Both the position numbers and the translations under genes were made by a program. Shown here in pieces: positions 1 through 32,167 of a stretch of DNA of 32,919 bases. Each line of letters opens with the position of its first letter. Positions within the stretch are counted from its first letter, which is position 1. The notes under the pieces were generated by a model, which did no database searches, had not been told where the DNA came from, and saw nothing but the letters and a program-made list of their open reading frames with translations. Source of the stretch: a virus (Duplodnaviria; Heunggongvirae; Uroviricota; Caudoviricetes); IMG/VR virus record IMGVR_UViG_2690316321_000007; one strand, given 5' to 3'.

Positions 1-1362
1 ATGTTTAAACCGGAACTCCTTTCCCCGGCGGGAACGCTGAAAAATATGCGTTACGCTTTCGCTTATGGCGCAGATGCTGTTTATGCGGGCCAGCCGCGTT
101 ACTCCCTGCGTGTGCGCAACAACGAATTCAACCACGAAAATCTTCAGCTCGGCATCAATGAAGCCCACGCGCTGGGGAAAAAGTTTTATGTCGTGGTCAA
201 CATTGCACCGCACAACGCCAAGCTGAAAACCTTTATCCGTGACCTGAAACCGGTGGTGGAAATGGGGCCGGATGCGCTGATTATGTCCGATCCAGGGCTG
301 ATTATGCTGGTGCGTGAACACTTCCCGGAAATGCCAATCCACCTCTCGGTACAGGCTAACGCCGTAAACTGGGCGACGGTGAAATTCTGGCAGCAAATGG
401 GTCTGACCCGCGTGATCCTCTCTCGCGAACTGTCACTGGAAGAGATTGAAGAGATCCGCAATCAGGTGCCGGATATGGAGATCGAAATCTTCGTTCACGG
501 CGCGCTGTGCATGGCCTACTCCGGTCGCTGCCTGCTCTCTGGCTATATCAACAAGCGCGACCCGAACCAGGGCACCTGCACCAACGCCTGCCGCTGGGAG
601 TACAACGTCCAGGAAGGGAAAGAAGATGACGTCGGCAACATCGTACACAAGTACGAGCCGATTCCGGTGCAAAATGTTGAGCCGACGCTGGGTATCGGCG
701 CGCCAACCGACAAAGTGTTTATGATCGAAGAAGCCCAGCGTCCGGGCGAATATATGACCGCGTTTGAAGATGAGCACGGCACTTACATCATGAACTCAAA
801 AGATCTGCGCGCCATCGCCCATGTTGAACGCCTGACCAAAATGGGCGTGCATTCGCTGAAAATCGAAGGCCGTACCAAATCTTTCTACTATTGCGCACGC
901 ACCGCGCAGGTTTACCGTAAAGCTATCGATGACGCCGCTGCGGGCAAACCGTTCGATACCAGCCTGCTGGAAACTCTGGAAGGTCTGGCGCATCGTGGCT
1001 ATACCGAAGGTTTCCTGCGTCGTCATACCCACGACGATTATCAGAACTACGAATACGGTTATTCGGTTTCTGACCGTCAGCAGTTTGTTGGTGAGTTTAC
1101 CGGTGAGCGCAAGGGGGAGCTCGCGGCGGTAGCGGTGAAAAATAAATTCTCCGTTGGCGACAGCCTTGAGCTGATGACGCCGCAAGGCAACATTAACTTT
1201 ACCCTTGAGCATATGGAAAACGCCAAAGGTGAAGCTATGCCGGTCGCACCAGGCGATGGTTATACTGTGTGGCTCCCGGTGCCGCAGGATCTTGAGCTAA
1301 ATTACGCGCTGCTGATGCGTAATTTCTCCGGGGAAACCACGCGTAACCCCCACGGTAAGTGA
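1..1362 (+). CDS. yegQ: U32-family peptidase-like protein YegQ; host gene left of the prophage
   Basis: 453-aa ORF starting at window base 1; sequence and length recognised as E. coli YegQ from memory; lies directly upstream of cyaR as in E. coli. Confidence 0.85.
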   Translation: MFKPELLSPAGTLKNMRYAFAYGADAVYAGQPRYSLRVRNNEFNHENLQLGINEAHALGKKFYVVVNIAPHNAKLKTFIRDLKPVVEMGPDALIMSDPGLIMLVREHFPEMPIHLSVQANAVNWATVKFWQQMGLTRVILSRELSLEEIEEIRNQVPDMEIEIFVHGALCMAYSGRCLLSGYINKRDPNQGTCTNACRWEYNVQEGKEDDVGNIVHKYEPIPVQNVEPTLGIGAPTDKVFMIEEAQRPGEYMTAFEDEHGTYIMNSKDLRAIAHVERLTKMGVHSLKIEGRTKSFYYCARTAQVYRKAIDDAAAGKPFDTSLLETLEGLAHRGYTEGFLRRHTHDDYQNYEYGYSVSDRQQFVGEFTGERKGELAAVAVKNKFSVGDSLELMTPQGNINFTLEHMENAKGEAMPVAPGDGYTVWLPVPQDLELNYALLMRNFSGETTRNPHGK

Positions 1363-7044: not shown

Positions 7045-8235
7045 TTAATTGCTGTTAACCGAGGTGACCAGATTTGCCAGGTATTTATCGGTAATACGCT
7101 GGCGCAGGGTCAGGTTTTCAAGAGGAGGCACCGGTGTATAGTCGTAGTCGATATACAGTTTTCCGGCCTTGAGGGTTTCCGCATCGTTGGATTCTTCGCT
7201 GAACCAGCAGGTCGCATCCACGATATAGCCGTTTGTTTTCAGCTCACGGAATTTGGCATTGATGCCGTCAACGATGTCGCGAATCAGCGTTGCGGTGATG
7301 GGCTTGTCCACCGCCCACATGTGCGCCTCAGCCATCGTGTCGGCCAGCACCTGCGCGGTGCGGGTGTAGTTTTCAAAGAGGAACAGCGGGTCATCAGAGC
7401 AGGTACGGTTACCCCAGAATCGGAAACCGTCGCGGCGAATCAGCGTTGTGACGCCTGACTCGTTAAGCAGGTCAGCATCGGTGCCGGACTCCTGCAAATC
7501 CCAGAATACAGATGTGCTGATGCCGGTAACACCGTTTACCCCAACGTTGGACAGCGTTTTATGCCAGCCCTGCTCCTGGTCGATTTTAGCGCGCAGACCC
7601 AGCGCACGGGCGGTGGCATACGCGGTGGCGGTGGTGCTGCTGACCGTATCCCATGCGAGGAAATCCGGCCAGATGACCATCAGCTCACGCTGGCTGAAAT
7701 TCTGGCGGTAGGCTTTCACCTCGGAAATGGTTTTACAGCCCCATGCGCTGATATACCCGAAAGCGCGCAGCTTCTGACATACTGATGCCAGTGCAACCGC
7801 CACCTCTTTGGTGTCCAGTCCCGGCACGCCGAGAATACGCGGTTTAACACCGGTAACAGACTCCGCCGCCAGCAGGGCTTTCAGTCCGGTGTACTGACCG
7901 TTTTCGTCGGTGGTGCCAATGATATTGGAAACGGTCTGCGCGAGTTTCGTTTCCTCGTCGTCGCCGGTGCCGTCTTCCACGCGCACAACAACGGTGACCG
8001 GTTTTGACTGGTCAGCGATGGCCTGCAGCGACGCCGCCAGCGTGCCTTTTTTACCGGCCTTTGCAATTGCGCTCTGCACATTGGTAATCAGCACCGGTTT
8101 ATTGAGGGGGAAGGTTTCCGCATCCGCATCGCTGGCCATGCAGACCATGCCAACAATGGCGGTGGATACGGTGGAAATGACGCGGGTGCCGTCGTTAATC
8201 TCCAGCACCTGCACGCCGTGATGATAGTCACTCAT
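7045..8235 (-). CDS. FI: Contractile tail sheath protein FI (396 aa)
   Basis: Length and position match P2 gpFI; SD GGAG upstream of the ATG. Confidence 0.9.
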   Translation of the reverse strand: MSDYHHGVQVLEINDGTRVISTVSTAIVGMVCMASDADAETFPLNKPVLITNVQSAIAKAGKKGTLAASLQAIADQSKPVTVVVRVEDGTGDDEETKLAQTVSNIIGTTDENGQYTGLKALLAAESVTGVKPRILGVPGLDTKEVAVALASVCQKLRAFGYISAWGCKTISEVKAYRQNFSQRELMVIWPDFLAWDTVSSTTATAYATARALGLRAKIDQEQGWHKTLSNVGVNGVTGISTSVFWDLQESGTDADLLNESGVTTLIRRDGFRFWGNRTCSDDPLFLFENYTRTAQVLADTMAEAHMWAVDKPITATLIRDIVDGINAKFRELKTNGYIVDATCWFSEESNDAETLKAGKLYIDYDYTPVPPLENLTLRQRITDKYLANLVTSVNSN

Positions 8236-8326
8236 CCGTTTAACTCCGTGGTTAATGGGTGCAACTATTTTCTGTTGGGCAGTGCATGAGACGCTATTTG
8301 ACCTGGCTGGTCAGTGGATGAAACAA

Positions 8327-8357
8327 CAGATAAAGAAAATGCGGGCAATTCGCCCGC
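8327..8357 (-). terminator. Terminator-like hairpin upstream of FI (GCGGGC-aattc-GCCCGC, U-rich on minus strand)
   Basis: 6-bp GC stem followed on the minus strand by ATTTTCTTTA; lies between the cargo genes and the FI late promoter region. Confidence 0.45.
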
Positions 8358-8645
8358 CTGTCCTGATTTGTACACACTCATTTTCCGACTGACAATTTAC
8401 ATAGCCCAAAATCTATCAAATCTGACAGTCTGCTTTGAGTGAGAAGCGGAAGTTCAATGTGATAAAGCTCAGGAACATTGTCGTTGATGATGATAAAGAG
8501 GATCAGACTAACTAGCACTTCTCATCACGTTGATAAGGCATAGAAATCACAAACACTATTGTGAATATCGTTTTACTATAGTAAATTCAAGTAAGTTCTT
8601 TTCGTTCGTTATTACACAAAATAAAGTTCACTCTAAGGTTGAAAA

Positions 8646-9089
8646 ATGTTAGATATCAGAATGTCACGACCATCTGAAGCAGATGAGATCATACAAATCT
8701 GGAAGAGTTCAGTCGATGCTACCCACGACTTTCTTACAGGTCATGACCGACAAGAAATCGAAAAAGAAGTTGTCGGCTTTTTCTCAGAAACTCCTGTATG
8801 GGTTGCAACAAATCAGGATGACCAACCGCTAGGATTTATGTTTTTGCATGAGGGCCATCTGGAGGCACTTTTTGTAGCAGGCTCTGCTCGCGGACTTGGC
8901 GTCGGAAAACGTTTGATCTCTCATGCACTGGCGCTGCATCCAGAGCTAAGCGTTGATGTAAATGAACAAAACCAGCAGGCTGTAGGGTTTTATCAGCATA
9001 TGGGTTTTCAGGTATTAGGGCGTTCCGATCTGGATAATCAGGGAAGGCCATACCCCTTGTTGCATCTGAGAATGGCCAATAACATGTAA
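8646..9089 (+). CDS. GNAT-family N-acetyltransferase, YjaB-like (147 aa); accessory cargo
   Basis: Motifs IWKSSVDATHDFL, LGFMFL, VGKRLISHAL and NEQNQQAVGFYQHMGF resemble E. coli YjaB from memory; AT-rich upstream region; lies in the G-FI junction. Confidence 0.75.
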   Translation: MLDIRMSRPSEADEIIQIWKSSVDATHDFLTGHDRQEIEKEVVGFFSETPVWVATNQDDQPLGFMFLHEGHLEALFVAGSARGLGVGKRLISHALALHPELSVDVNEQNQQAVGFYQHMGFQVLGRSDLDNQGRPYPLLHLRMANNM

Positions 9090-9109
9090 CCAATGTGGCA
9101 GAGAAGATA

Positions 9110-9694
9110 TCATTGATTTTTTTGGCTAAAAGCCACGATGTAAGAACAGCTCTGCTCACTATCTGGATTGCTCATTTGGTACTCGCTTGCAAAGGTAAGG
9201 GCAAGACAGTCACCGGCACGTAAATGATGGGTCTGATTTTTGACTCGAAAATCAAGGCTACCACTCATCACCCAAAGCGTTTGCCCGGAAAGATGCTCAT
9301 TTGCGGAGGCGGGTATCGTCAGCTCACCCATTGCAGGAATTTCAACTTTGATCAGTTCCGGGCATGCCCCCGCAGGAGACAAAGACCAACGGGTGATGCC
9401 TGATTGCTCATCCGTCCAGTGCTGTTGCTGATGAGCAAAACGAACCAGGGAATTCTGATGTTGCTCAAGCTCTGCAAAGAGTTTAGATAGCGTTACATTC
9501 ATGGCGTTGGCCAGGCGGCTAAGGATAGTTGCACTAGGGCTGGAGATGCCTCGTTCAATCTTACTAATCATGGCCTGACTGACGCCCGATCGTTGAGCAA
9601 GCTCAGTTACAGTCAAATTGCGAGCCTTCCTGTGTTTAAGCAATAAACGTGCAATATCGCTATCTACTATCTGATTTTTAGATTTTTTATCCAT
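9110..9694 (-). CDS. XRE-family HTH transcriptional regulator with C-terminal cupin domain (194 aa); accessory cargo
   Basis: N-terminal LTVTELAQRSGVSQAMISKIERG helix-turn-helix; C-terminal half has cupin-like character. The 305-aa six-frame ORF was trimmed to the ATG at 9694 because the extension overlaps G and lacks a ribosome-binding site. Confidence 0.7.
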   Translation of the reverse strand: MDKKSKNQIVDSDIARLLLKHRKARNLTVTELAQRSGVSQAMISKIERGISSPSATILSRLANAMNVTLSKLFAELEQHQNSLVRFAHQQQHWTDEQSGITRWSLSPAGACPELIKVEIPAMGELTIPASANEHLSGQTLWVMSGSLDFRVKNQTHHLRAGDCLALTFASEYQMSNPDSEQSCSYIVAFSQKNQ

Positions 9695-9929
9695 TTCCGC
9701 CCTCTCTTTCACCAACCTGATTATGCCATTACATAAATTGGCCTGAAATAAATGATTTTGTAAGTCTGTAAATTCACTACTCCTAAGCGTGGTACTTCGT
9801 TTATACGCACCTATGACCTTAAAATATGAGTTGGTAAGCTTAACGTCCGCTTTTGGCACAGAGCGGACTGTCAGATTAGGCTTTACTCTGTGCCATAGAT
9901 ATGTAAGCTCACACCAGAGCTCATACAAC

Positions 9930-10457
9930 TTATTGCGGCATTTCCGGCCATTCAGGATTTGCAGGATCCACACGACTGACCAGAACGCTGTAACGCTCCC
10001 ATGCATCCAGTCGGCTACGCTCCTCATCTGTTGCCATATTCAGTCTGACCGCGCGCTCCAGCGGCAAAATCACGGATTCAGCATCTGCTAGAAGTCTGGC
10101 TTTCCGATTTTCTGCCTGCTGCTGCAATTCCTCCGCCGTATAAATTCGTTTAATCACTGTGCCGTCCTTAAACATCCAGTTCCCTGAAATGTCCGCCCGT
10201 CGGTTAGCAGTAATATCTGGCACTTCAACAACACTTAATCCATCTGGTCTGATAGCTGTCACATCCTTTTCCACATAGCGGATAATATTATCTTTGTCGT
10301 ACGCTATTTTTATCGTGTCATCAGCAAAATACTTTTGTTCTTCGTACCAGTTCTTACCATCTTCTGAAAAAAACCAGACAACATCAAAACCCTTTGTCAA
10401 TTGATATTGTTCAACCGTTTTTGGATTACCCGCTGTTATATTTATCAAATGCTGCAT
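9930..10457 (-). CDS. G: Tail fibre assembly chaperone G (175 aa)
   Basis: Length and position match P2 gpG. Confidence 0.85.
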
Positions 10458-10460
10458 AAA

Positions 10461-12590
10461 TTATACCTGTGCCACGTTATACCATGTCCCGTTAATGTAT
10501 TTCTGCACCGGTCTGTAATATATGCCACCAATGTTATCGGCAGAGTTTGAGCCGGTATCCTGAACAATAATGCCAGAATATACACACCCGGACGGTGCCT
10601 GATGTGTCCATGTCATGCCATTGTTCGCTGGTTTGTATGTGGCAGCACCACCAAGCCGGATATCCCGGACATAGCGGGAATCAAAGTTACCGTAATCCGA
10701 GGGATTAACACGCCCCGTAATATTTATGGTTTTATTACTTTGAATGCTACCGGAGACAAAGCGCATAACATGGACGTTATTAGCATAAACATCCAGATTA
10801 CCGTCGCCATTTTGTTTAAAGCCCGTGTCATTATCACCCAAAACAATCGAGTTACCGCCAAGATCACTGGATGTTCCGATGCCCAGTGCACCATTCAATT
10901 GACCTCCAGATAATGACAACGCCCCAACATCAGCAGCAGTCGGTTTAATGTGCGAACTGTAAATTACATATACAGTTCCATCTGTCAGGCCTGTTGGTTT
11001 ATTCGCTGTATAAGTTGGTGATGTATGAATCGTTACGCTGGCGTTACTGGTATAATCCCACTGAATATTAACACCTGTGGCGTAATTACCTATTTCAACA
11101 TAAACATCATAGGTATCACCGGATGTATTCACCCATGCAAAATTAGTAAATCCAACCGATGTCCGTCGCCATAACGCACCAGTAAGACCTTTTGGATTTC
11201 CATTTCCCGCACGAAGAACAAGTTCAGATATACCAGCCTGCATAGGGGAGTTAACATTATATCCAGCACCACCAATCAGGCTTATGTAAACCACGGAACT
11301 TGCCTGGGGCATGGTTACAGTTGCCAGCCTGAACCATCCTGTACCACCACTAAAAGACATGGTTGTTGAATTTGTTGCTCCAATATTGCGCAGGAATAAT
11401 CTTTTATCAGGAATATCCGCACCGTTCTGATCTTTCTGAAGACGTTTTTCAGCATTGTCATAGGCAGACTTCACCGCTTTTGGTGTTGCGGCCAGCGTTT
11501 CAGAATCACTGTTGGTGGCGCTACTGAGCTGAACAAGCCCTTTTCGCGCTGTGGTGGCATCCTGTGCAGTGTATTTCCCGTTAGCAAGGTCATACGCGAC
11601 CTTTACCGCCTTTGGCGTTGCCGCAAGCGTTTCAGAATCGCTGTTTGTGGCGCTACTGAGCTGGACAAGACCTTTTCGCGCCGTGGTGGCATCCTGTGCG
11701 GTATATTTCCCGTTAGCGAGGTCATATGCTGTCTTAACCGCCTTTGGCGTTGCGGCCAGCGTTTCAGAATCGCTGTTGGTGGCGCTACTTAGCTGGACAA
11801 GACCTTTTCGCGCGGTGGTGGCATCCTGTGCGGTATATTTCCCGTTAGCGAGGTCATATGCTGCCTTTACCGCCTTTGGCGTTGCCGCAAGCGTTTCAGA
11901 ATCGCTGTTGGTGGCGCTACTGAGCTGAACAAGGCCTTTTCGCGCTGTGGTGGCATCCTGCGCGGTATATTTCCCGTTAGCAAGATCATAAGCGGCCTTT
12001 ACCGCTTTCGGCGTTGCGGCCAGTGTTTCAGACGTGCTGTTGGTCGCACTGCTTAACTGAGTAAAACCTTTTGCGGTCAGCGAGGCGTCCGGGTGACGTC
12101 GTGACTGTTCGTGCTCTGCAATTTTGTCATCAACGTAATCCTGCGTCGCCATCACCGTTGTGGTGTCAATGGTCAGCGCCACTGAGGCCACACTGCTGAC
12201 GATGATGACCATGCGGCAGGTCTGCGAACGCCCTGAGCCTTCGGCAAGAGCTGGCTTATAACTTTCGGCCATGTTCGCCACGGCAATTAACGTTCCAGCA
12301 TCATCGTACAGGCCAAGCTCACGCATCCAGAAACCGCCCACCTCCGGCGGAATAACCAGCTCTGCGATAATATAATTACTGTTTCGTTTGTCCTGGCTGA
12401 TTTTGTTCAGCGCATGTCGCCAGACTTCATGGATAAGCCCGGTCTGTCCGGCATCCGGGACAGGCAATTTACCACCGCCATCCCCGACGGCCATCGTGGT
12501 AATGTTGACCTTCCGCCCTCCCGGTGCGGTTGCCGCTGCCAGCTTTGCTGCACCGGCAGTGGTGATAACGGTTTTGAATTTTGTGCTCAT
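10461..12590 (-). CDS. H: Tail fibre protein H (709 aa) with expanded internal repeat and divergent C-terminal region
   Basis: Conserved N-terminus and the C-terminal IVLGDNDTGFKQNGDG...QKYINGTWYNVAQV block; five copies of a 44-aa repeat in the middle. Confidence 0.85.
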   Translation of the reverse strand: MSTKFKTVITTAGAAKLAAATAPGGRKVNITTMAVGDGGGKLPVPDAGQTGLIHEVWRHALNKISQDKRNSNYIIAELVIPPEVGGFWMRELGLYDDAGTLIAVANMAESYKPALAEGSGRSQTCRMVIIVSSVASVALTIDTTTVMATQDYVDDKIAEHEQSRRHPDASLTAKGFTQLSSATNSTSETLAATPKAVKAAYDLANGKYTAQDATTARKGLVQLSSATNSDSETLAATPKAVKAAYDLANGKYTAQDATTARKGLVQLSSATNSDSETLAATPKAVKTAYDLANGKYTAQDATTARKGLVQLSSATNSDSETLAATPKAVKVAYDLANGKYTAQDATTARKGLVQLSSATNSDSETLAATPKAVKSAYDNAEKRLQKDQNGADIPDKRLFLRNIGATNSTTMSFSGGTGWFRLATVTMPQASSVVYISLIGGAGYNVNSPMQAGISELVLRAGNGNPKGLTGALWRRTSVGFTNFAWVNTSGDTYDVYVEIGNYATGVNIQWDYTSNASVTIHTSPTYTANKPTGLTDGTVYVIYSSHIKPTAADVGALSLSGGQLNGALGIGTSSDLGGNSIVLGDNDTGFKQNGDGNLDVYANNVHVMRFVSGSIQSNKTINITGRVNPSDYGNFDSRYVRDIRLGGAATYKPANNGMTWTHQAPSGCVYSGIIVQDTGSNSADNIGGIYYRPVQKYINGTWYNVAQV
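11459..12059. repeat. Tandem 132-bp (44-codon) repeat, about 4.5 copies, inside tail fibre gene H
   Basis: Unit encodes QLSSATNS(D/T)SETLAATPKAVKxAYDLANGKYTAQDATTARKGLV; the nucleotide period of 132 is visible directly in the sequence. Confidence 0.85.
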
Positions 12591-12600
12591 TATTCCTCAC

Positions 12601-13131
12601 TTATCCGGGGTAAACCGTAATTACATCGCCGTCATAAGCCACACCACCGGCGAACAGGTAGCCGGGAATGTCCCGGGTAATGTTCAGGCCAATAAGGTGG
12701 CGGCTTGCAGGTTTGGCATCAGCAATCAGCCGTTCCATTTCCTGATACATTGCCTCCGTGATGCCACTTTCCAGTACACCAATATCAAGCCGGAAGGTGC
12801 CGGGCGGGTCACTGTTTTCCCACCACTCCGTCACGTTGATGAGATAGCCGAGCGGCTCCACCACACGCCGGATTGCGCCGACAGTGCCTTTATGACAATG
12901 AATGAAATACGCATCGCGGATAACGGCGCGTTTTGTCGCTTCCGGCCACTTTTCATCCCACCTGTCGACCGAAAACGCCCACGCCAGCCACGGCAGCAGA
13001 TTTGCCGGACAGGTATCCGGGTTCCACAGCTCACGAATACTGACCGGCGTTTTTTCAATTTCCGCACAGGCTTTTGCGGCAGCAACTTCAAGCGGTGATG
13101 AGCCGGTCGGCAGCAGTCGCGAATCACTCAT
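12601..13131 (-). CDS. I: Baseplate assembly protein I (176 aa)
   Basis: Length and position match P2 gpI. Confidence 0.85.
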   Translation of the reverse strand: MSDSRLLPTGSSPLEVAAAKACAEIEKTPVSIRELWNPDTCPANLLPWLAWAFSVDRWDEKWPEATKRAVIRDAYFIHCHKGTVGAIRRVVEPLGYLINVTEWWENSDPPGTFRLDIGVLESGITEAMYQEMERLIADAKPASRHLIGLNITRDIPGYLFAGGVAYDGDVITVYPG

Positions 13132-14032
13132 CCGAGCCTCCGGTCACGACGCGGTATTCGGTACAGAAAGACGCCTGCGTACTGTTGAGCACGATGTCAG
13201 CCAGTGGTGCAGTCAGTTCGACACGCTGCACGCCTTCCACATGCAAAGCGGCATAAATGGCAGACAGACGGATGTCGCGCCCCAGCCGGTGCTGTGCCGT
13301 GATATACGCTTCCAGTTTTTTCACGGCGGCAGCGCGGATGGGTTCGCTTTCGGGACCAGGGTAAAGATACAGCGTGGCGTTTATCTGGTATTCAACGATG
13401 GCGGCAGACTGCACGGTCACGCGGTCGGCCACCGGCCTGACGTCCTCGCCATTAAGGGCGTTACGCACCACGGCCAGCAGGTCTTCGGATGCGACGCCGT
13501 TATTTTCACGTGACAGCACAGAGATAGTGACGCAGGCCGGAGACGGACTGGTGACAGAGATATCCGCGACACGCCCGTCGGCACTGCGGCCATGATACTG
13601 ATAGGCACCCACCGACCCGGCGACGCTTAAACCTTCAAACGCCTGCTGAATACGCAGACGATAATCGGTGTCAGACTCCATCACTGCCGGTGTCGGCGGG
13701 AGGGTCGAATCATCTGCCGGGGTGATAGTCAGGCGCGTGGTGTTGTAATTGGCACCCATCACATCAAGGTCATTACCGGCAGCACAGGCCAGCATCACCG
13801 CCCGTGCGGCCTCATTCACACGCTGACGCCAGATAAGCTCACGATAAGCATTTTCCTCCAGCAGTTTGACGAGAGGCTCGGATTCCAGCATCAGGGTACG
13901 GGCGACCGCCTCCTGCTGGTCTTCCGGGTAAAGGGAAATCAGTGTCGCCTTGCGTTCGGCAAGAATGGTTTCAAAGTCCAGCTCCTCGACCACATCCGGT
14001 GCGGGTAGCTGGTTCAGGTCGATAATCGGCAT
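13124..14032 (-). CDS. J: Baseplate assembly protein J (302 aa)
   Basis: Length and position match P2 gpJ. Confidence 0.85.
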   Translation of the reverse strand: MPIIDLNQLPAPDVVEELDFETILAERKATLISLYPEDQQEAVARTLMLESEPLVKLLEENAYRELIWRQRVNEAARAVMLACAAGNDLDVMGANYNTTRLTITPADDSTLPPTPAVMESDTDYRLRIQQAFEGLSVAGSVGAYQYHGRSADGRVADISVTSPSPACVTISVLSRENNGVASEDLLAVVRNALNGEDVRPVADRVTVQSAAIVEYQINATLYLYPGPESEPIRAAAVKKLEAYITAQHRLGRDIRLSAIYAALHVEGVQRVELTAPLADIVLNSTQASFCTEYRVVTGGSDE

Positions 14033-20170: not shown

Positions 20171-21243
20171 TTACGCTCCCGGCTCTGCGGTCGCCTTAGC
20201 CGGTGTGGAGAAATCACCGACCTTAATTTTTTCCACCAGACAACCGGCGGCGTAGTCTTCCACCACGTAATCAATGTTCATTGACTCGTAGTTCTCCACG
20301 CGGTCGAGTTTCGGGTTTTCCTCAATCACGCGGCGATGGCTGTCATCCATGTAGTAGATGGACAGGTTTTCCAGCTTCGTGATGAGCATCGCATCCGCCG
20401 GGAAGTACGGGACGCGTACCGCCGGCAGGTTACCGATGCGTTTCTGGCTGATGATGACGTCAGCGGCCAGCATCTCGCTGTTGTCCTGCTCCCTGTTGAC
20501 GATGGGGAAATACTTGTCCGCCAGTAGCTGGCGACCCACAATCACCACAAGGTCAGGGTCTTCCTGATACCACGGTTCAATCAGGTTGTTGGTCGCATCC
20601 ATCACCAGTGCATCAAGGCTGGCATAATCACCGCCCTTACCCACGCGGATAACCTCAGAGGTCGTGCGGCCTTCCTCGTCAGTGACCTTGCTCATCACGC
20701 GCGCCGGGGCTTCATTGCGGTATTTCTGCAGCCAGCCGACCGCCACATCCTGCAGCATCGGGTTACTGCTGCGGTCAGAGGTTTCGGCACGCTTCACGCC
20801 GTTAAAACCGGCCATGATGAAATCAAGGGACTGGCGTTTGATAATGGCGTTACGGACACGGAGCTGGAAATCCTGATAACGCGCCCACAGGTCCAGCGTT
20901 TTGTCGCGGATATAAAAATCGAAGTTAATCTGGTCGCATTCGTACTTGTTTGACGCCAGCTTCGAGAAGTCCTTCGGCTGACGCTCGGTGCCACCGGCGG
21001 TGTCGGTGGTGCTGGCGATGGAGCCGGTGACACCGATGCCAATTTTTTCCCTTTCATTTCGCTGACCGGCACAATGTTGATGCGGGTCAGAAAGTCAGAG
21101 GACTCCTGCATGGTGTTCATCAGGGTCTGGGTGACCGACGGTTCAACGGTGAATTTTTTCGACACATCACCGGCGTCGATGCCGTTCAGTTCGGCAACAC
21201 GGGACAGGTAAGCATTAAATTTAAAGCGGGTTTCCTGGCGCAT
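20171..21243 (-). pseudogene. N: Major capsid protein N, disrupted by a 1-bp frameshift in a homopolymer near 21046..21052
   Basis: Span is 1073 nt (1074 expected for 357 aa). The N-terminal 65 codons read in one frame to SEMKG, then the conserved continuation EKIGIGVTGSIASTTD... is in the -1 frame and stays open to the stop at 20171; the junction is GGG-AAAAAA on the coding strand. Confidence 0.8.
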
Positions 21244-25136: not shown

Positions 25137-25141
25137 ACATC

Positions 25142-25163
25142 GCCGCCTGCGGGCGGCTTTTTT
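25142..25163 (+). terminator. Rho-independent terminator after Q
   Basis: GCCGCC-tgcg-GGCGGC stem-loop followed by T6. Confidence 0.7.
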
Positions 25164-25305
25164 ACACCCCGTCATCACCCCCTCACACGCTCACCACCGC
25201 ACAAAACACCCAGCAGACACACCAACGCCTCAACGGGCAGACTAAGCGCCGTCACGACGCGCTGAGACGCTGAAAAAATAAAATCAGCACCACCGCCAGC
25301 GCGCA

Positions 25306-25324
25306 GTGCTTTCCCCGCCTCGCC
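25306..25324. other. cos site: 19-nt cohesive-end sequence
   Basis: GTGCTTTCCCCGCCTCGCC is the reverse complement of GGCGAGGCGGGGAAAGCAC, the P2 cohesive end as I recall it; lies about 170 bp after Q, as expected for the Q-proximal genome end. Confidence 0.65.
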
Positions 25325-25895
25325 CGCCCGCTTCATGTGGCGGTTTTAATGCAGTTGCATAGATACTATGGATCCGCACCAGCTCTGACCGCGAGCAGCT
25401 GGAACGGGCATCCCCGACGCATGCAAAAACATTCACTTGTTGCATGCACGGCTTATTAAATGACAAATCAACTTAAGCGTCACCGCAGCTCCCACAAAAA
25501 AACGTAACACCATGATTTTAGTGATATTTATGACTTTTTCAATTGCTTATTTAAGTCCGCCATATTGAAACCGTGCATTTTTTAGCCACCAATAACTTTA
25601 AAAAATTTACATTGCTTTCAATACCTTATCATCCGTAGTCCCTGCTTTTTACTTTGAGCTATATCAAAAAAAGCTCAAACATCCTTGATGCAAAACCAGT
25701 ATTACACAACATAAAATGCAACCAGAAACAACGACATACTATATGTTGTGTTGTTCAGGCTCTCTGTTCGGTGATATGCCAGATCACTTTGCGTTTAAAC
25801 AGAGCATTATTTCAGGGCAAGACTTCGCTAAATAGTAACTCCGCCTCAGAAGCGCATATATCGGCGGAAATTGCCCTCTGCTTACAGGAGGAGAT

Positions 25896-26009
25896 ATGAA
25901 GAAGTGCTATTACTGCATTCTCGTTCTGGCCCTCTTTGGCTATCCATATGGTAGTCCAAGTGGTTTGTCAGTAAACGTCAGTAATATCCATGTAAGTATT
26001 ATTCTTTAG
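25896..26009 (+). CDS. Candidate small hydrophobic protein (37 aa, MKKCYYCILVLALFGYPYGS...)
   Basis: ATG 4-5 nt after a strong SD AGGAGG; ends 11 nt before a strong terminator; lies in the AT-rich region at the P2 old/tin position. Could equally be the N-terminal stub of a lost gene. Confidence 0.35.
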   Translation: MKKCYYCILVLALFGYPYGSPSGLSVNVSNIHVSIIL

Positions 26010-26020
26010 TATGCTTCAAA

Positions 26021-26051
26021 CAAAAAAACCACCTGCCAGGGTGGTTTTTTT
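26021..26051. terminator. Bidirectional Rho-independent terminator (A7-CCACCTG..CAGGGTGG-T8)
   Basis: GC-rich hairpin flanked by an A-run and a T-run; ends both the small ORF (plus) and the early operon ending with A (minus). Confidence 0.7.
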
Positions 26052-26311
26052 GCGCCTGTCATCATTCCGATGAAAGACTAGCAAGACTTCGCTCGAGATG
26101 AATTATGCTTCGACAAAAGGTCACTCGCAATGGTTTTATTAGCCGAAATAGATGCTCTTTTATGACTCGAATCAAATAGCTACCTTAAATTACATGCTAG
26201 CGATTCAATACAATTTAGCCTTCTACTTCAGCATGCTATTGCTCCTCATCTGCCTTAGAGGCGCTCCGCATAATCCATTCAAAGGCATATAAAATCACGC
26301 TGCATTTTTAC

Positions 26312-31153: not shown

Positions 31154-32167
31154 ATGGCAATCAAAAAACTCGATGATGGTCGATATGAAGTGGACATCCG
31201 CCCTACTGGACGTAACGGAAAACGCATCCGTAGGAAGTTTGATAAGAAAAGCGAAGCTGTCGCTTTCGAAAAATACACGTTGTACAACCACCACAATAAA
31301 GAATGGCTATCAAAACCAACAGACAAACGACGTCTGTCGGAACTGACACAGATCTGGTGGGATTTAAAGGGTAAACACGAAGAGCATGGGAAATCTAATC
31401 TTGGAAAAATTGAAATCTTCACAAAAATAACGAATGACCCATGCGCATTTCAAATCACGAAATCCCTTATCAGCCAGTACTGCGCCACCCGAAGAAGTCA
31501 GGGTATTAAACCTTCGAGTATCAATCGTGATTTAACATGTATTAGCGGCATGTTTACAGCCCTGATTGAAGCGGAGTTATTCTTTGGTGAGCACCCTATC
31601 AGAGGGACAAAGAGGCTTAAGGAGGAAAAACCAGAAACAGGCTATCTCACACAGGAAGAAATTGCCTTACTGCTTGCAGCACTTGACGGCGACAACAAAA
31701 AGATTGCGATTCTTTGCCTGAGTACAGGAGCACGTTGGGGAGAAGCAGCTCGTTTGAAAGCAGAAAATATCATCCATAACCGCGTCACGTTTGTTAAAAC
31801 GAAAACAAACAAACCACGCACCGTCCCGATCTCAGAGGCTGTTGCCAAAATGATCGCGGATAACAAACGAGGTTTTTTATTCCCTGATGCTGATTACCCT
31901 CGCTTCAGACGAACAATGAAAGCAATAAAACCGGATTTGCCAACGGGGCAAGCCACACATGCACTAAGGCACAGCTTTGCCACTCATTTCATGATTAATG
32001 GAGGAAGTATTATCACGCTACAACGGATACTAGGTCACACGCGGATTGAGCAAACTATGGTTTACGCTCATTTTGCGCCAGAGTACCTTCAGGACGCCAT
32101 TTCTCTTAATCCGCTAAGAGGTGGTACTGAAGCCGAGAGTGTCCACACAGTGTCCACAGTAGAGTAA
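31154..32167 (+). CDS. int: Tyrosine integrase (337 aa)
   Basis: C-terminal catalytic signature (...HALRHSFATH...LGHTRIEQTMVYAHF) typical of tyrosine recombinases; adjacent to the att core. Confidence 0.9.
   Translation: MAIKKLDDGRYEVDIRPTGRNGKRIRRKFDKKSEAVAFEKYTLYNHHNKEWLSKPTDKRRLSELTQIWWDLKGKHEEHGKSNLGKIEIFTKITNDPCAFQITKSLISQYCATRRSQGIKPSSINRDLTCISGMFTALIEAELFFGEHPIRGTKRLKEEKPETGYLTQEEIALLLAALDGDNKKIAILCLSTGARWGEAARLKAENIIHNRVTFVKTKTNKPRTVPISEAVAKMIADNKRGFLFPDADYPRFRRTMKAIKPDLPTGQATHALRHSFATHFMINGGSIITLQRILGHTRIEQTMVYAHFAPEYLQDAISLNPLRGGTEAESVHTVSTVE

Follow-up and report, generated by a model that had tools for sequence, protein, structure and literature searches.

Tail fibres containing units of the family PF03406 (Phage_fiber_2) have been described in P2-, Mu- and lambda-type phages, and the fibre protein H encoded in the stretch of Caudoviricetes DNA analysed here (IMG/VR record IMGVR_UViG_2690316321_000007; 32,919 nucleotides, hereafter the window) can be compared with each of them. 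P2 gpH (NP_046775, 669 aa) resembles the window protein in having a near-identical N-terminal domain followed by PF03406 units. However, P2 gpH has two units, of which the second breaks off after AVK, whereas the window has five; its middle of about 190 aa (TVMDETNKKAPLNSPALTGTPTTP...) does not occur in the window, and its distal module and tip are unlike those of the window, although the last residues, QKYINGTWYNVAQV, are alike. A mosaic gpH is also known from the Yersinia phage L-413C, for which the part of PMC7460101 that cites Garcia et al. (2008) gives identity to P2 over the N-terminal 207 aa. As described there, a P2-like N-terminus is followed by a foreign middle, as in the window, and the identity to P2 ends near the end of window unit 1 (aa 211); the L-413C protein nevertheless has other middle modules and a different length, with a tblastn match of 2739 nt (~912 aa).

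Mu S/S' (PDB 5yvq, 9ki1, 8ju3) and the fibres of vB_YpM_5 and vB_YpM_39 have one to three PF03406 units, after which comes a junction motif shared with the window. In Mu-type fibres, however, the module lies within an invertible segment beside hin/gin, whereas the window has neither a gix-like core nor an inverted copy near H; their N-terminal domain is unlike that of the window, where H is surrounded by genes in the P2 order. Lambda-type side tail fibres (P0121, P0122, P0125) carry a tandem PF03406 unit with 77-78% identity to that of the window, but in 7-12 units that alternate between 44-aa and 53-aa forms, and with a different N-terminal domain and tip. The C-terminal ~70 residues of the short tail fibre of Pectobacterium phage phiTE (9cuy/9mjn) resemble the window tip, whereas the remainder of that protein is unrelated to H and no PF03406 match was found in it.

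The window H gene (10461-12590, minus strand) encodes 709 aa and was assigned to the P2 gpH type from its ORF, Pfam matches and gene order. The N-terminal baseplate-attachment part (aa 1-167; 12090-12590, minus strand) includes a PF12571 tail-collar fibre domain (aa 1-151, 197 bits) and is near-identical to that of P2 H, the late-operon order V-W-J-I-H-G is kept around the gene as in P2, and the extreme C-terminus, P(V/I)QKYINGTWYNVAQV, is common to H and P2 H, with the preceding 45 residues differing. Thus all three of the sequence features that define P2-type gpH, namely the N-terminal domain, the operon position and the extreme C-terminus, were found in H. The next gene downstream is G (9930-10457, minus strand), a tail-fibre assembly protein (PF02413 Caudo_TAP, 119 bits). 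An NCBI entry (P0021) with the title 'putative tail fiber protein (GpH) [Escherichia coli]' shows 100% identity to the H protein, and no NCBIfam model matched H. Taken as a whole, the best explanation, which we consider highly probable, is that H is the predicted trimeric tail fibre of a P2-like (Peduovirus) E. coli prophage and consists of four segments: an N-terminal anchor, a shaft of five PF03406 units, a short conserved junction, and a two-part exchangeable receptor-binding end with G as its chaperone.

The repeats form a single tandem array at 11457-12072 (TRF: period 132, 4.7 copies, 88% matches, no indels, score 910), and a second repeat search recovered the same 132-bp spacing. A period of 132 (3 x 44) keeps the copies in frame. 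The initial annotation had described about 4.5 in-frame copies of a 132-bp unit encoding a 44-aa motif at 11459-12059, which lies inside the TRF array and agrees with it. Alignment in register resolved five consecutive 44-aa units covering aa 168-387 (11430-12089), all on the minus strand: unit 1, the conserved proximal edge unit (aa 168-211; 11958-12089), the inner units 2 (aa 212-255; 11826-11957), 3 (aa 256-299; 11694-11825) and 4 (aa 300-343; 11562-11693), and unit 5, the conserved distal edge unit (aa 344-387; 11430-11561), whose final 10 residues (DNAEKRLQKD) diverge into the junction. Pfam matched PF03406 to five stretches of H with 328 bits against a cut-off of 22, the best stretch being aa 170-210 (profile positions 1-41 of 42); H therefore scores above the gathering cut-off and has tandem units of about 40 residues within a tail-fibre protein, the two marks of this family. 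A 125-aa ORF on the plus strand of the array (11551-11928) was rejected as a real gene and is a by-product of the repeat, because one stop-free antisense frame in the unit stays open through all similar units.

Arrays of this kind are liable to collapse or expansion during assembly, and the tandem structure itself, with its 132-bp period and 88% matches, as well as the identity of the window to a draft assembly contig (L085), would be compatible with a copy number created in that way. Near-identical repeats had been flagged as an assembly-error hotspot, a concern that the comparison with other assemblies removes. The same H protein is encoded in two NCBI assemblies, GCA_001286605.1, which is identical to the window across 8130 bp, and GCA_039857135.1, which agrees exactly with the window throughout the H gene but has 32 differences in the flanks; the latter suggests a different genome carrying the same array. 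Matches occurred in 2117 complete E. coli genomes, of which 65 had one over at least 80% of the H gene, and 38 of the 40 best of these carry an allele of exactly 2130 bp (95.7-97.7% identity), the other two having a 1998-bp allele that is one unit shorter. Furthermore, 93 of the 120 closest protein clusters are 709 aa long with five units, some of them on 60-206 contigs, and no two units agree exactly, in register, over more than 49 bp, a length below that of an ordinary read. An assembly artefact consequently has a negligible probability, and the assembly of five units can be relied upon.

The units are much more alike in protein than in DNA. Units 2-4 differ by 1 residue, so the statement that there are few substitutions between copies holds at the protein level; it is weaker for DNA, with 8-13 differences per 132 nt among units 2-4 and 31-33 per 132 nt between unit 1 and units 2-4. 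Unit 5 (first 102 nt) shows 10-14 differences from units 2-4, and the overall DNA likeness between units is 76-94%. Pairwise comparison of units 2-5 (Nei-Gojobori) gave dS of 0.25-0.7 with dN of 0.01-0.03 (0.25-0.69 and 0.010-0.027), with dS of 0.25-0.43 among units 2-4 and 0.45-0.69 from those to unit 5, while dS between unit 1 and the other units is about 1. Because such synonymous divergence accompanies so little nonsynonymous change in units 2-5, the five units are old paralogues kept near-identical in protein by purifying selection. Across 451 inner units (184 distinct proteins), appreciable variation was confined to positions 19 (D/T) and 32 (A/V/T). A diversity-generating retroelement is an improbable source of variation, given this limitation to two positions and an ORF layout that is the P2 gene order.

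The initial annotation read the array as a repeat expansion in the fibre shaft, and a recent, lineage-specific expansion by replication slippage from a P2-like two-unit ancestor could draw on the two units of P2 and on the fact that units 2-4 are the most alike of the array. However, the synonymous divergence among units 2-4, and still more that from these to unit 5, exceeds by far what a recent event would leave; negligible synonymous divergence between copies, as in a slippage-type, contingency-locus-like array, was not what we found (dS 0.25-0.7). The inner units of the window are closer to units of other alleles (1-3 differences) than to those of their own array, and arrays of 4-6 units occur in many alleles with differing distal modules. 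We therefore regard a recent slippage expansion as very improbable, contradicted both by the divergence of the units and by the wide distribution of the five-unit allele.

The range of copy number among relatives was assessed in the best 80 of 426 IMG/VR matches ranked by N-terminal similarity, which are not a random sample, and in which the H N-terminal domain is 98-100% identical to that of the window. Among the 76 complete H genes in these best 80 of 426 loci, 46 have four units, 16 have two, 12 have five and 2 have three. The 120 closest protein clusters, all with the window's junction, comprise 21 with four units (665 aa), 93 with five (709 aa) and 6 with six (745/753 aa), such that one distal module type occurs with four, five or six units. 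Five units are thus ordinary, and P2 lies at the low end of a range of 2-6 in P2-like fibres. P2 H (669 aa) does have fewer copies than the window, two against five, as the initial annotation had stated, but it cannot serve as the norm: four is the commonest count and five is frequent, which makes P2 a poor yardstick for normal copy number. The converse proposition, that P2-like fibres generally carry five copies, was borne out in part, five being common (12/76) but not the rule. No specific published copy-number survey of P2 H repeats was found in the literature, and the survey figures, with 2-6 units, conserved edge units and shuffled inner units, offer a small reusable description of variation in this fibre family.

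Selection on copy number might underlie this distribution, with fibre reach matched to receptor depth (the LPS core under O-antigen), rather than copy number being a neutral by-product of recombination. Every unit is strongly conserved in protein and the distribution is discrete with a mode at four. Among the loci surveyed, every allele with the P2-type middle has two units, whereas those with the array directly joined to the QNGADIP junction have 4-6, which suggests a constrained shaft length. Total H length nevertheless still spans 642-816 aa in the IMG/VR loci surveyed, and the occurrence of four, five and six units with one distal module would fit near-neutral variation equally well. Selective tuning of copy number is therefore possible but rather doubtful.

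Beyond the array, the window protein departs from P2. The junction motif LQKDQNGADIPDKRLFLRNIG (aa 384-404; 11379-11441, minus strand) links the array to the distal module, as identified by alignments to Mu S, where it corresponds to residues ~150-175, and to vB_YpM_39, where it falls in the inner portion of the inverted-repeat arm that bounds the invertible segment. The distal module itself (H nt 1153-1940, aa ~385-647; 10651-11438, minus strand) is absent from P2 by alignment, in keeping with the observation in the initial annotation that the region following the repeats differs from P2. At the nucleotide level, it is 93.3% identical to Muvirus vB_YpM_5/6 and 92.1% identical to vB_YpM_39, which are Mu-like Yersinia phages, and it was also found in pro147 and P2_AC1. 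The suggested mosaic exchange is likewise supported, both by this 92-93% identity to Mu-like phages and by a tip and a gene G that are common to other peduoviruses.

A hin invertase gene adjoins the homologue of the distal module in vB_YpM_5/6 and vB_YpM_39. At either end of the invertible segment of vB_YpM_39 lies an 83-nt inverted repeat with a gix-like core, and homology to the window begins just inside the inverted-repeat arm. The gix-like core present in both arms of vB_YpM_39, AAAACCTCGGTTTACAGGAA, was not found in the window even with 3 mismatches allowed, and other crossover-site sequences did not match at the junction (best 11-12/26 mismatches). No inverted copy was found near H, the only inverted repeat of at least 25 nt in 8200-13200 being 8419-8454 / 9842-9877, which does not flank H, and no serine invertase was present among the genes beside H and G, namely I, an XRE-cupin regulator and a GNAT acetyltransferase. 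An invertible segment of the Mu G, P1 C or Hin-Gin type was consequently rejected for this locus, which has neither flanking inverted crossover sites nor an adjacent invertase. Given the absence of the gix-like core from the window, the distal module is fixed here rather than invertible. The receptor-binding end is nonetheless of the type carried in Mu-like invertible segments.

The fibre tip (aa 648-709; 10461-10650, minus strand) differs by alignment from both P2 and Mu-like tips. Taken together with G, the tip (encoded by the final 190 nt of H) recurs at 93-97% identity in P24E6b, D8, P22H1, P24C9, fiAA91-ss and P22H4, and the peduoviruses with this tip and G have differing H middles. The tip is also similar to the C-terminal end of the short tail fibre of phiTE (9cuy; E value 2.7e-18), and G is 75% identical to P2 G. 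This distribution indicates that tip and G are a further module in which G travels with the tip. The distal replacement may alter host range, as the initial annotation had proposed, and host range would be better predicted from the distal module and the tip/G pair than from P2.

The units at the two edges of the array behave differently from those within it. In each of the other alleles examined, it is the first unit that comes closest to window unit 1 (0-13 differences per 102 nt), and the last unit matches window unit 5 best in most of them, whereas the inner units are shuffled across these alleles. Two types of allele were compared with the window unit by unit, L041 and L012, which have four units and other distal modules, and L004, L011 and L027, which have the architecture of the window. 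Units 1-3 of the window are closest to the first type, with 0-2, 2-3 (2 for L041) and 4 mismatches per 132 nt, respectively, against 3-9, 12-18 (15 for L004) and 10-12 (10 for L004) to the second. The pattern is reversed in unit 4, with 1 mismatch per 132 nt to the second type and 9, in a shifted register, to the first, and in unit 5, with 1-2 (2 for L004) and 5, again in a shifted register. In this comparison of a handful of alleles, the window array looks like a hybrid in which one array type contributed units 1-3, and a second type units 4-5 together with the distal module. The simplest reading would be an unequal exchange near a probable breakpoint at the unit 3/4 boundary, although the loss of one unit combined with the duplication of one unit would fit the pattern equally well.

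These observations would be consistent with a mechanism in which the array is both a structural element of the fibre and a site of exchange. If H works like the homologous fibres of P2 and Mu, docking on the baseplate would fall to its N-terminal domain, the proximal part of the shaft would consist of the units, and the receptor would be bound by the distal module and tip, with G folding the tip and probably staying associated with it. Being in frame and similar in DNA, the units could act as a substrate for unequal homologous recombination, which their 76-94% DNA likeness makes possible; because the unit is 132 bp, changes in copy number would remain in frame. Such recombination would generate both in-frame copy-number polymorphism (2-6 units) and hybrid arrays, and the array could then be a shared stretch where P2-, Mu- and lambda-type phages re-join proximal and distal halves. 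From the unit-by-unit alignments, we infer that recombination in the array produced the window allele.

The units may serve as a rigid spacer that sets fibre length. Structural information on them is limited to Mu: in PDB searches with the whole protein and with an eight-unit profile, the unit was found only in Mu S chains. In the Mu paper, the cryo-EM model covers the N-terminus of gp49 only, the C-terminus being known from a crystal, and a 2021 paper listed PF03406 among repeat families without known structure. An AlphaFold2 single-sequence monomer model of aa 141-431 was unusable (mean pLDDT 44.6, pTM 0.28). Tentatively, and with less than even confidence, the PF03406 array might be viewed as a tunable length module and recombination adapter, in which the edge units preserve the joints with the anchor and with the distal module and the inner units (0-4 in P2-like fibres) set the reach, for example to O-antigen thickness. 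The fold of the unit and its rise per unit would also be new information. All of the observations are consistent with known P2-type tail-fibre biology, and the array and the swapped-in end are common, already catalogued features of the P2-like group; the discovery value of the locus is small, since PF03406 is curated in Pfam, the exact protein is in NCBI as GpH, and mosaic fibres of P2 relatives have been described before.

The unit itself is widespread. A single-unit search of 1.84 billion representative proteins returned 2145 clusters at E <=0.001, with up to 18 matched stretches per protein. Of three of the top matches, two have a different N-terminal region and carry 11 and 7 matched units, and the third, which starts inside the array, has 12.

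Across hundreds of PF03406 units, residues 19 and 32 were the only appreciably variable positions of the kind of inner unit found in the tail-fibre gene H (window positions 11430-11957). Residue 19 of the inner units is either D or T, and residue 32, which directly follows AVK, is A, V or T, with S, Y or F in the last units. An antisense ORF of 125 aa on the plus strand (11551-11928) crosses three repeat units of H, and most likely exists only as a side effect of the repetition: because one unit has no stop codon in that frame, the frame is open across all of the similar units.

Units of the same family were also found in fibres of other architectures. In the 49-kb Yersinia phage vB_YpM_39, a Mu-like phage, the fibre combines three PF03406 units with a P2-type middle and the distal module of the window. 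The invertible fibre segment of this phage is bordered by inverted repeats of 83 nt (90% complementary; phage positions 3954-4036 and 6932-7014) that contain a gix-like core (AAAACCTCGGTTTACAGGAA), with hin adjoining. In three lambda-type side tail fibres from the representative library (P0121, P0122, and P0125), the PF03406 units number 7-12 and come in two alternating lengths, 44 aa and 53 aa, the longer of which has an additional APSSHTHPWNQITGVP.

Gene content also differed from that of P2 between the tail-fibre assembly gene G and FI, where P2 has fun(Z) whereas the window has a convergent gene pair (8646-9694). This pair consists of a GNAT acetyltransferase gene on the plus strand (8646-9089; NCBIfam PRK10514 equivalog, 230 bits) and, on the minus strand, a gene for a regulator with XRE-HTH and cupin domains (9110-9694). 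A comparison of the pair with PADLOC matched no defence system and returned generic HTH models only. On either side of this cargo lie the arms of an imperfect inverted repeat of 36 nt (8419-8454 and 9842-9877; 81% complementary). The FI-side arm is kept in P2, upstream of pF, with 3 mismatches; for the G-side arm, the P2 stretch examined contains no counterpart of its own. In the interval that separates Q from replication gene A (25137-26311), the window contains no ORF longer than 81 aa; if this is where P2 carries old and tin, the slot looks empty in the window.

The major capsid gene N (20171-21243, minus strand) is broken by a frame shift near 21040-21055, where 1 nt is missing in a GGGG/AAAAAA run (window sequence GAAATGAAAGGGAAAAAATTGGC). 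The Pfam match to PF05125 is divided over two ORFs, at 20794-21243 (profile positions 1-63) and 20171-20815 (profile positions 136-327), and the same stretch of N measures 344 nt in the window versus 345 nt in the intact N of phage records. Either the homopolymer was misread in sequencing or the prophage is defective. A U32-family peptidase gene occupies one end of the window (1-1362, plus strand) and a prophage integrase gene lies near the other (31154-32167, plus strand), which implies that the window represents a nearly whole prophage together with host flank.
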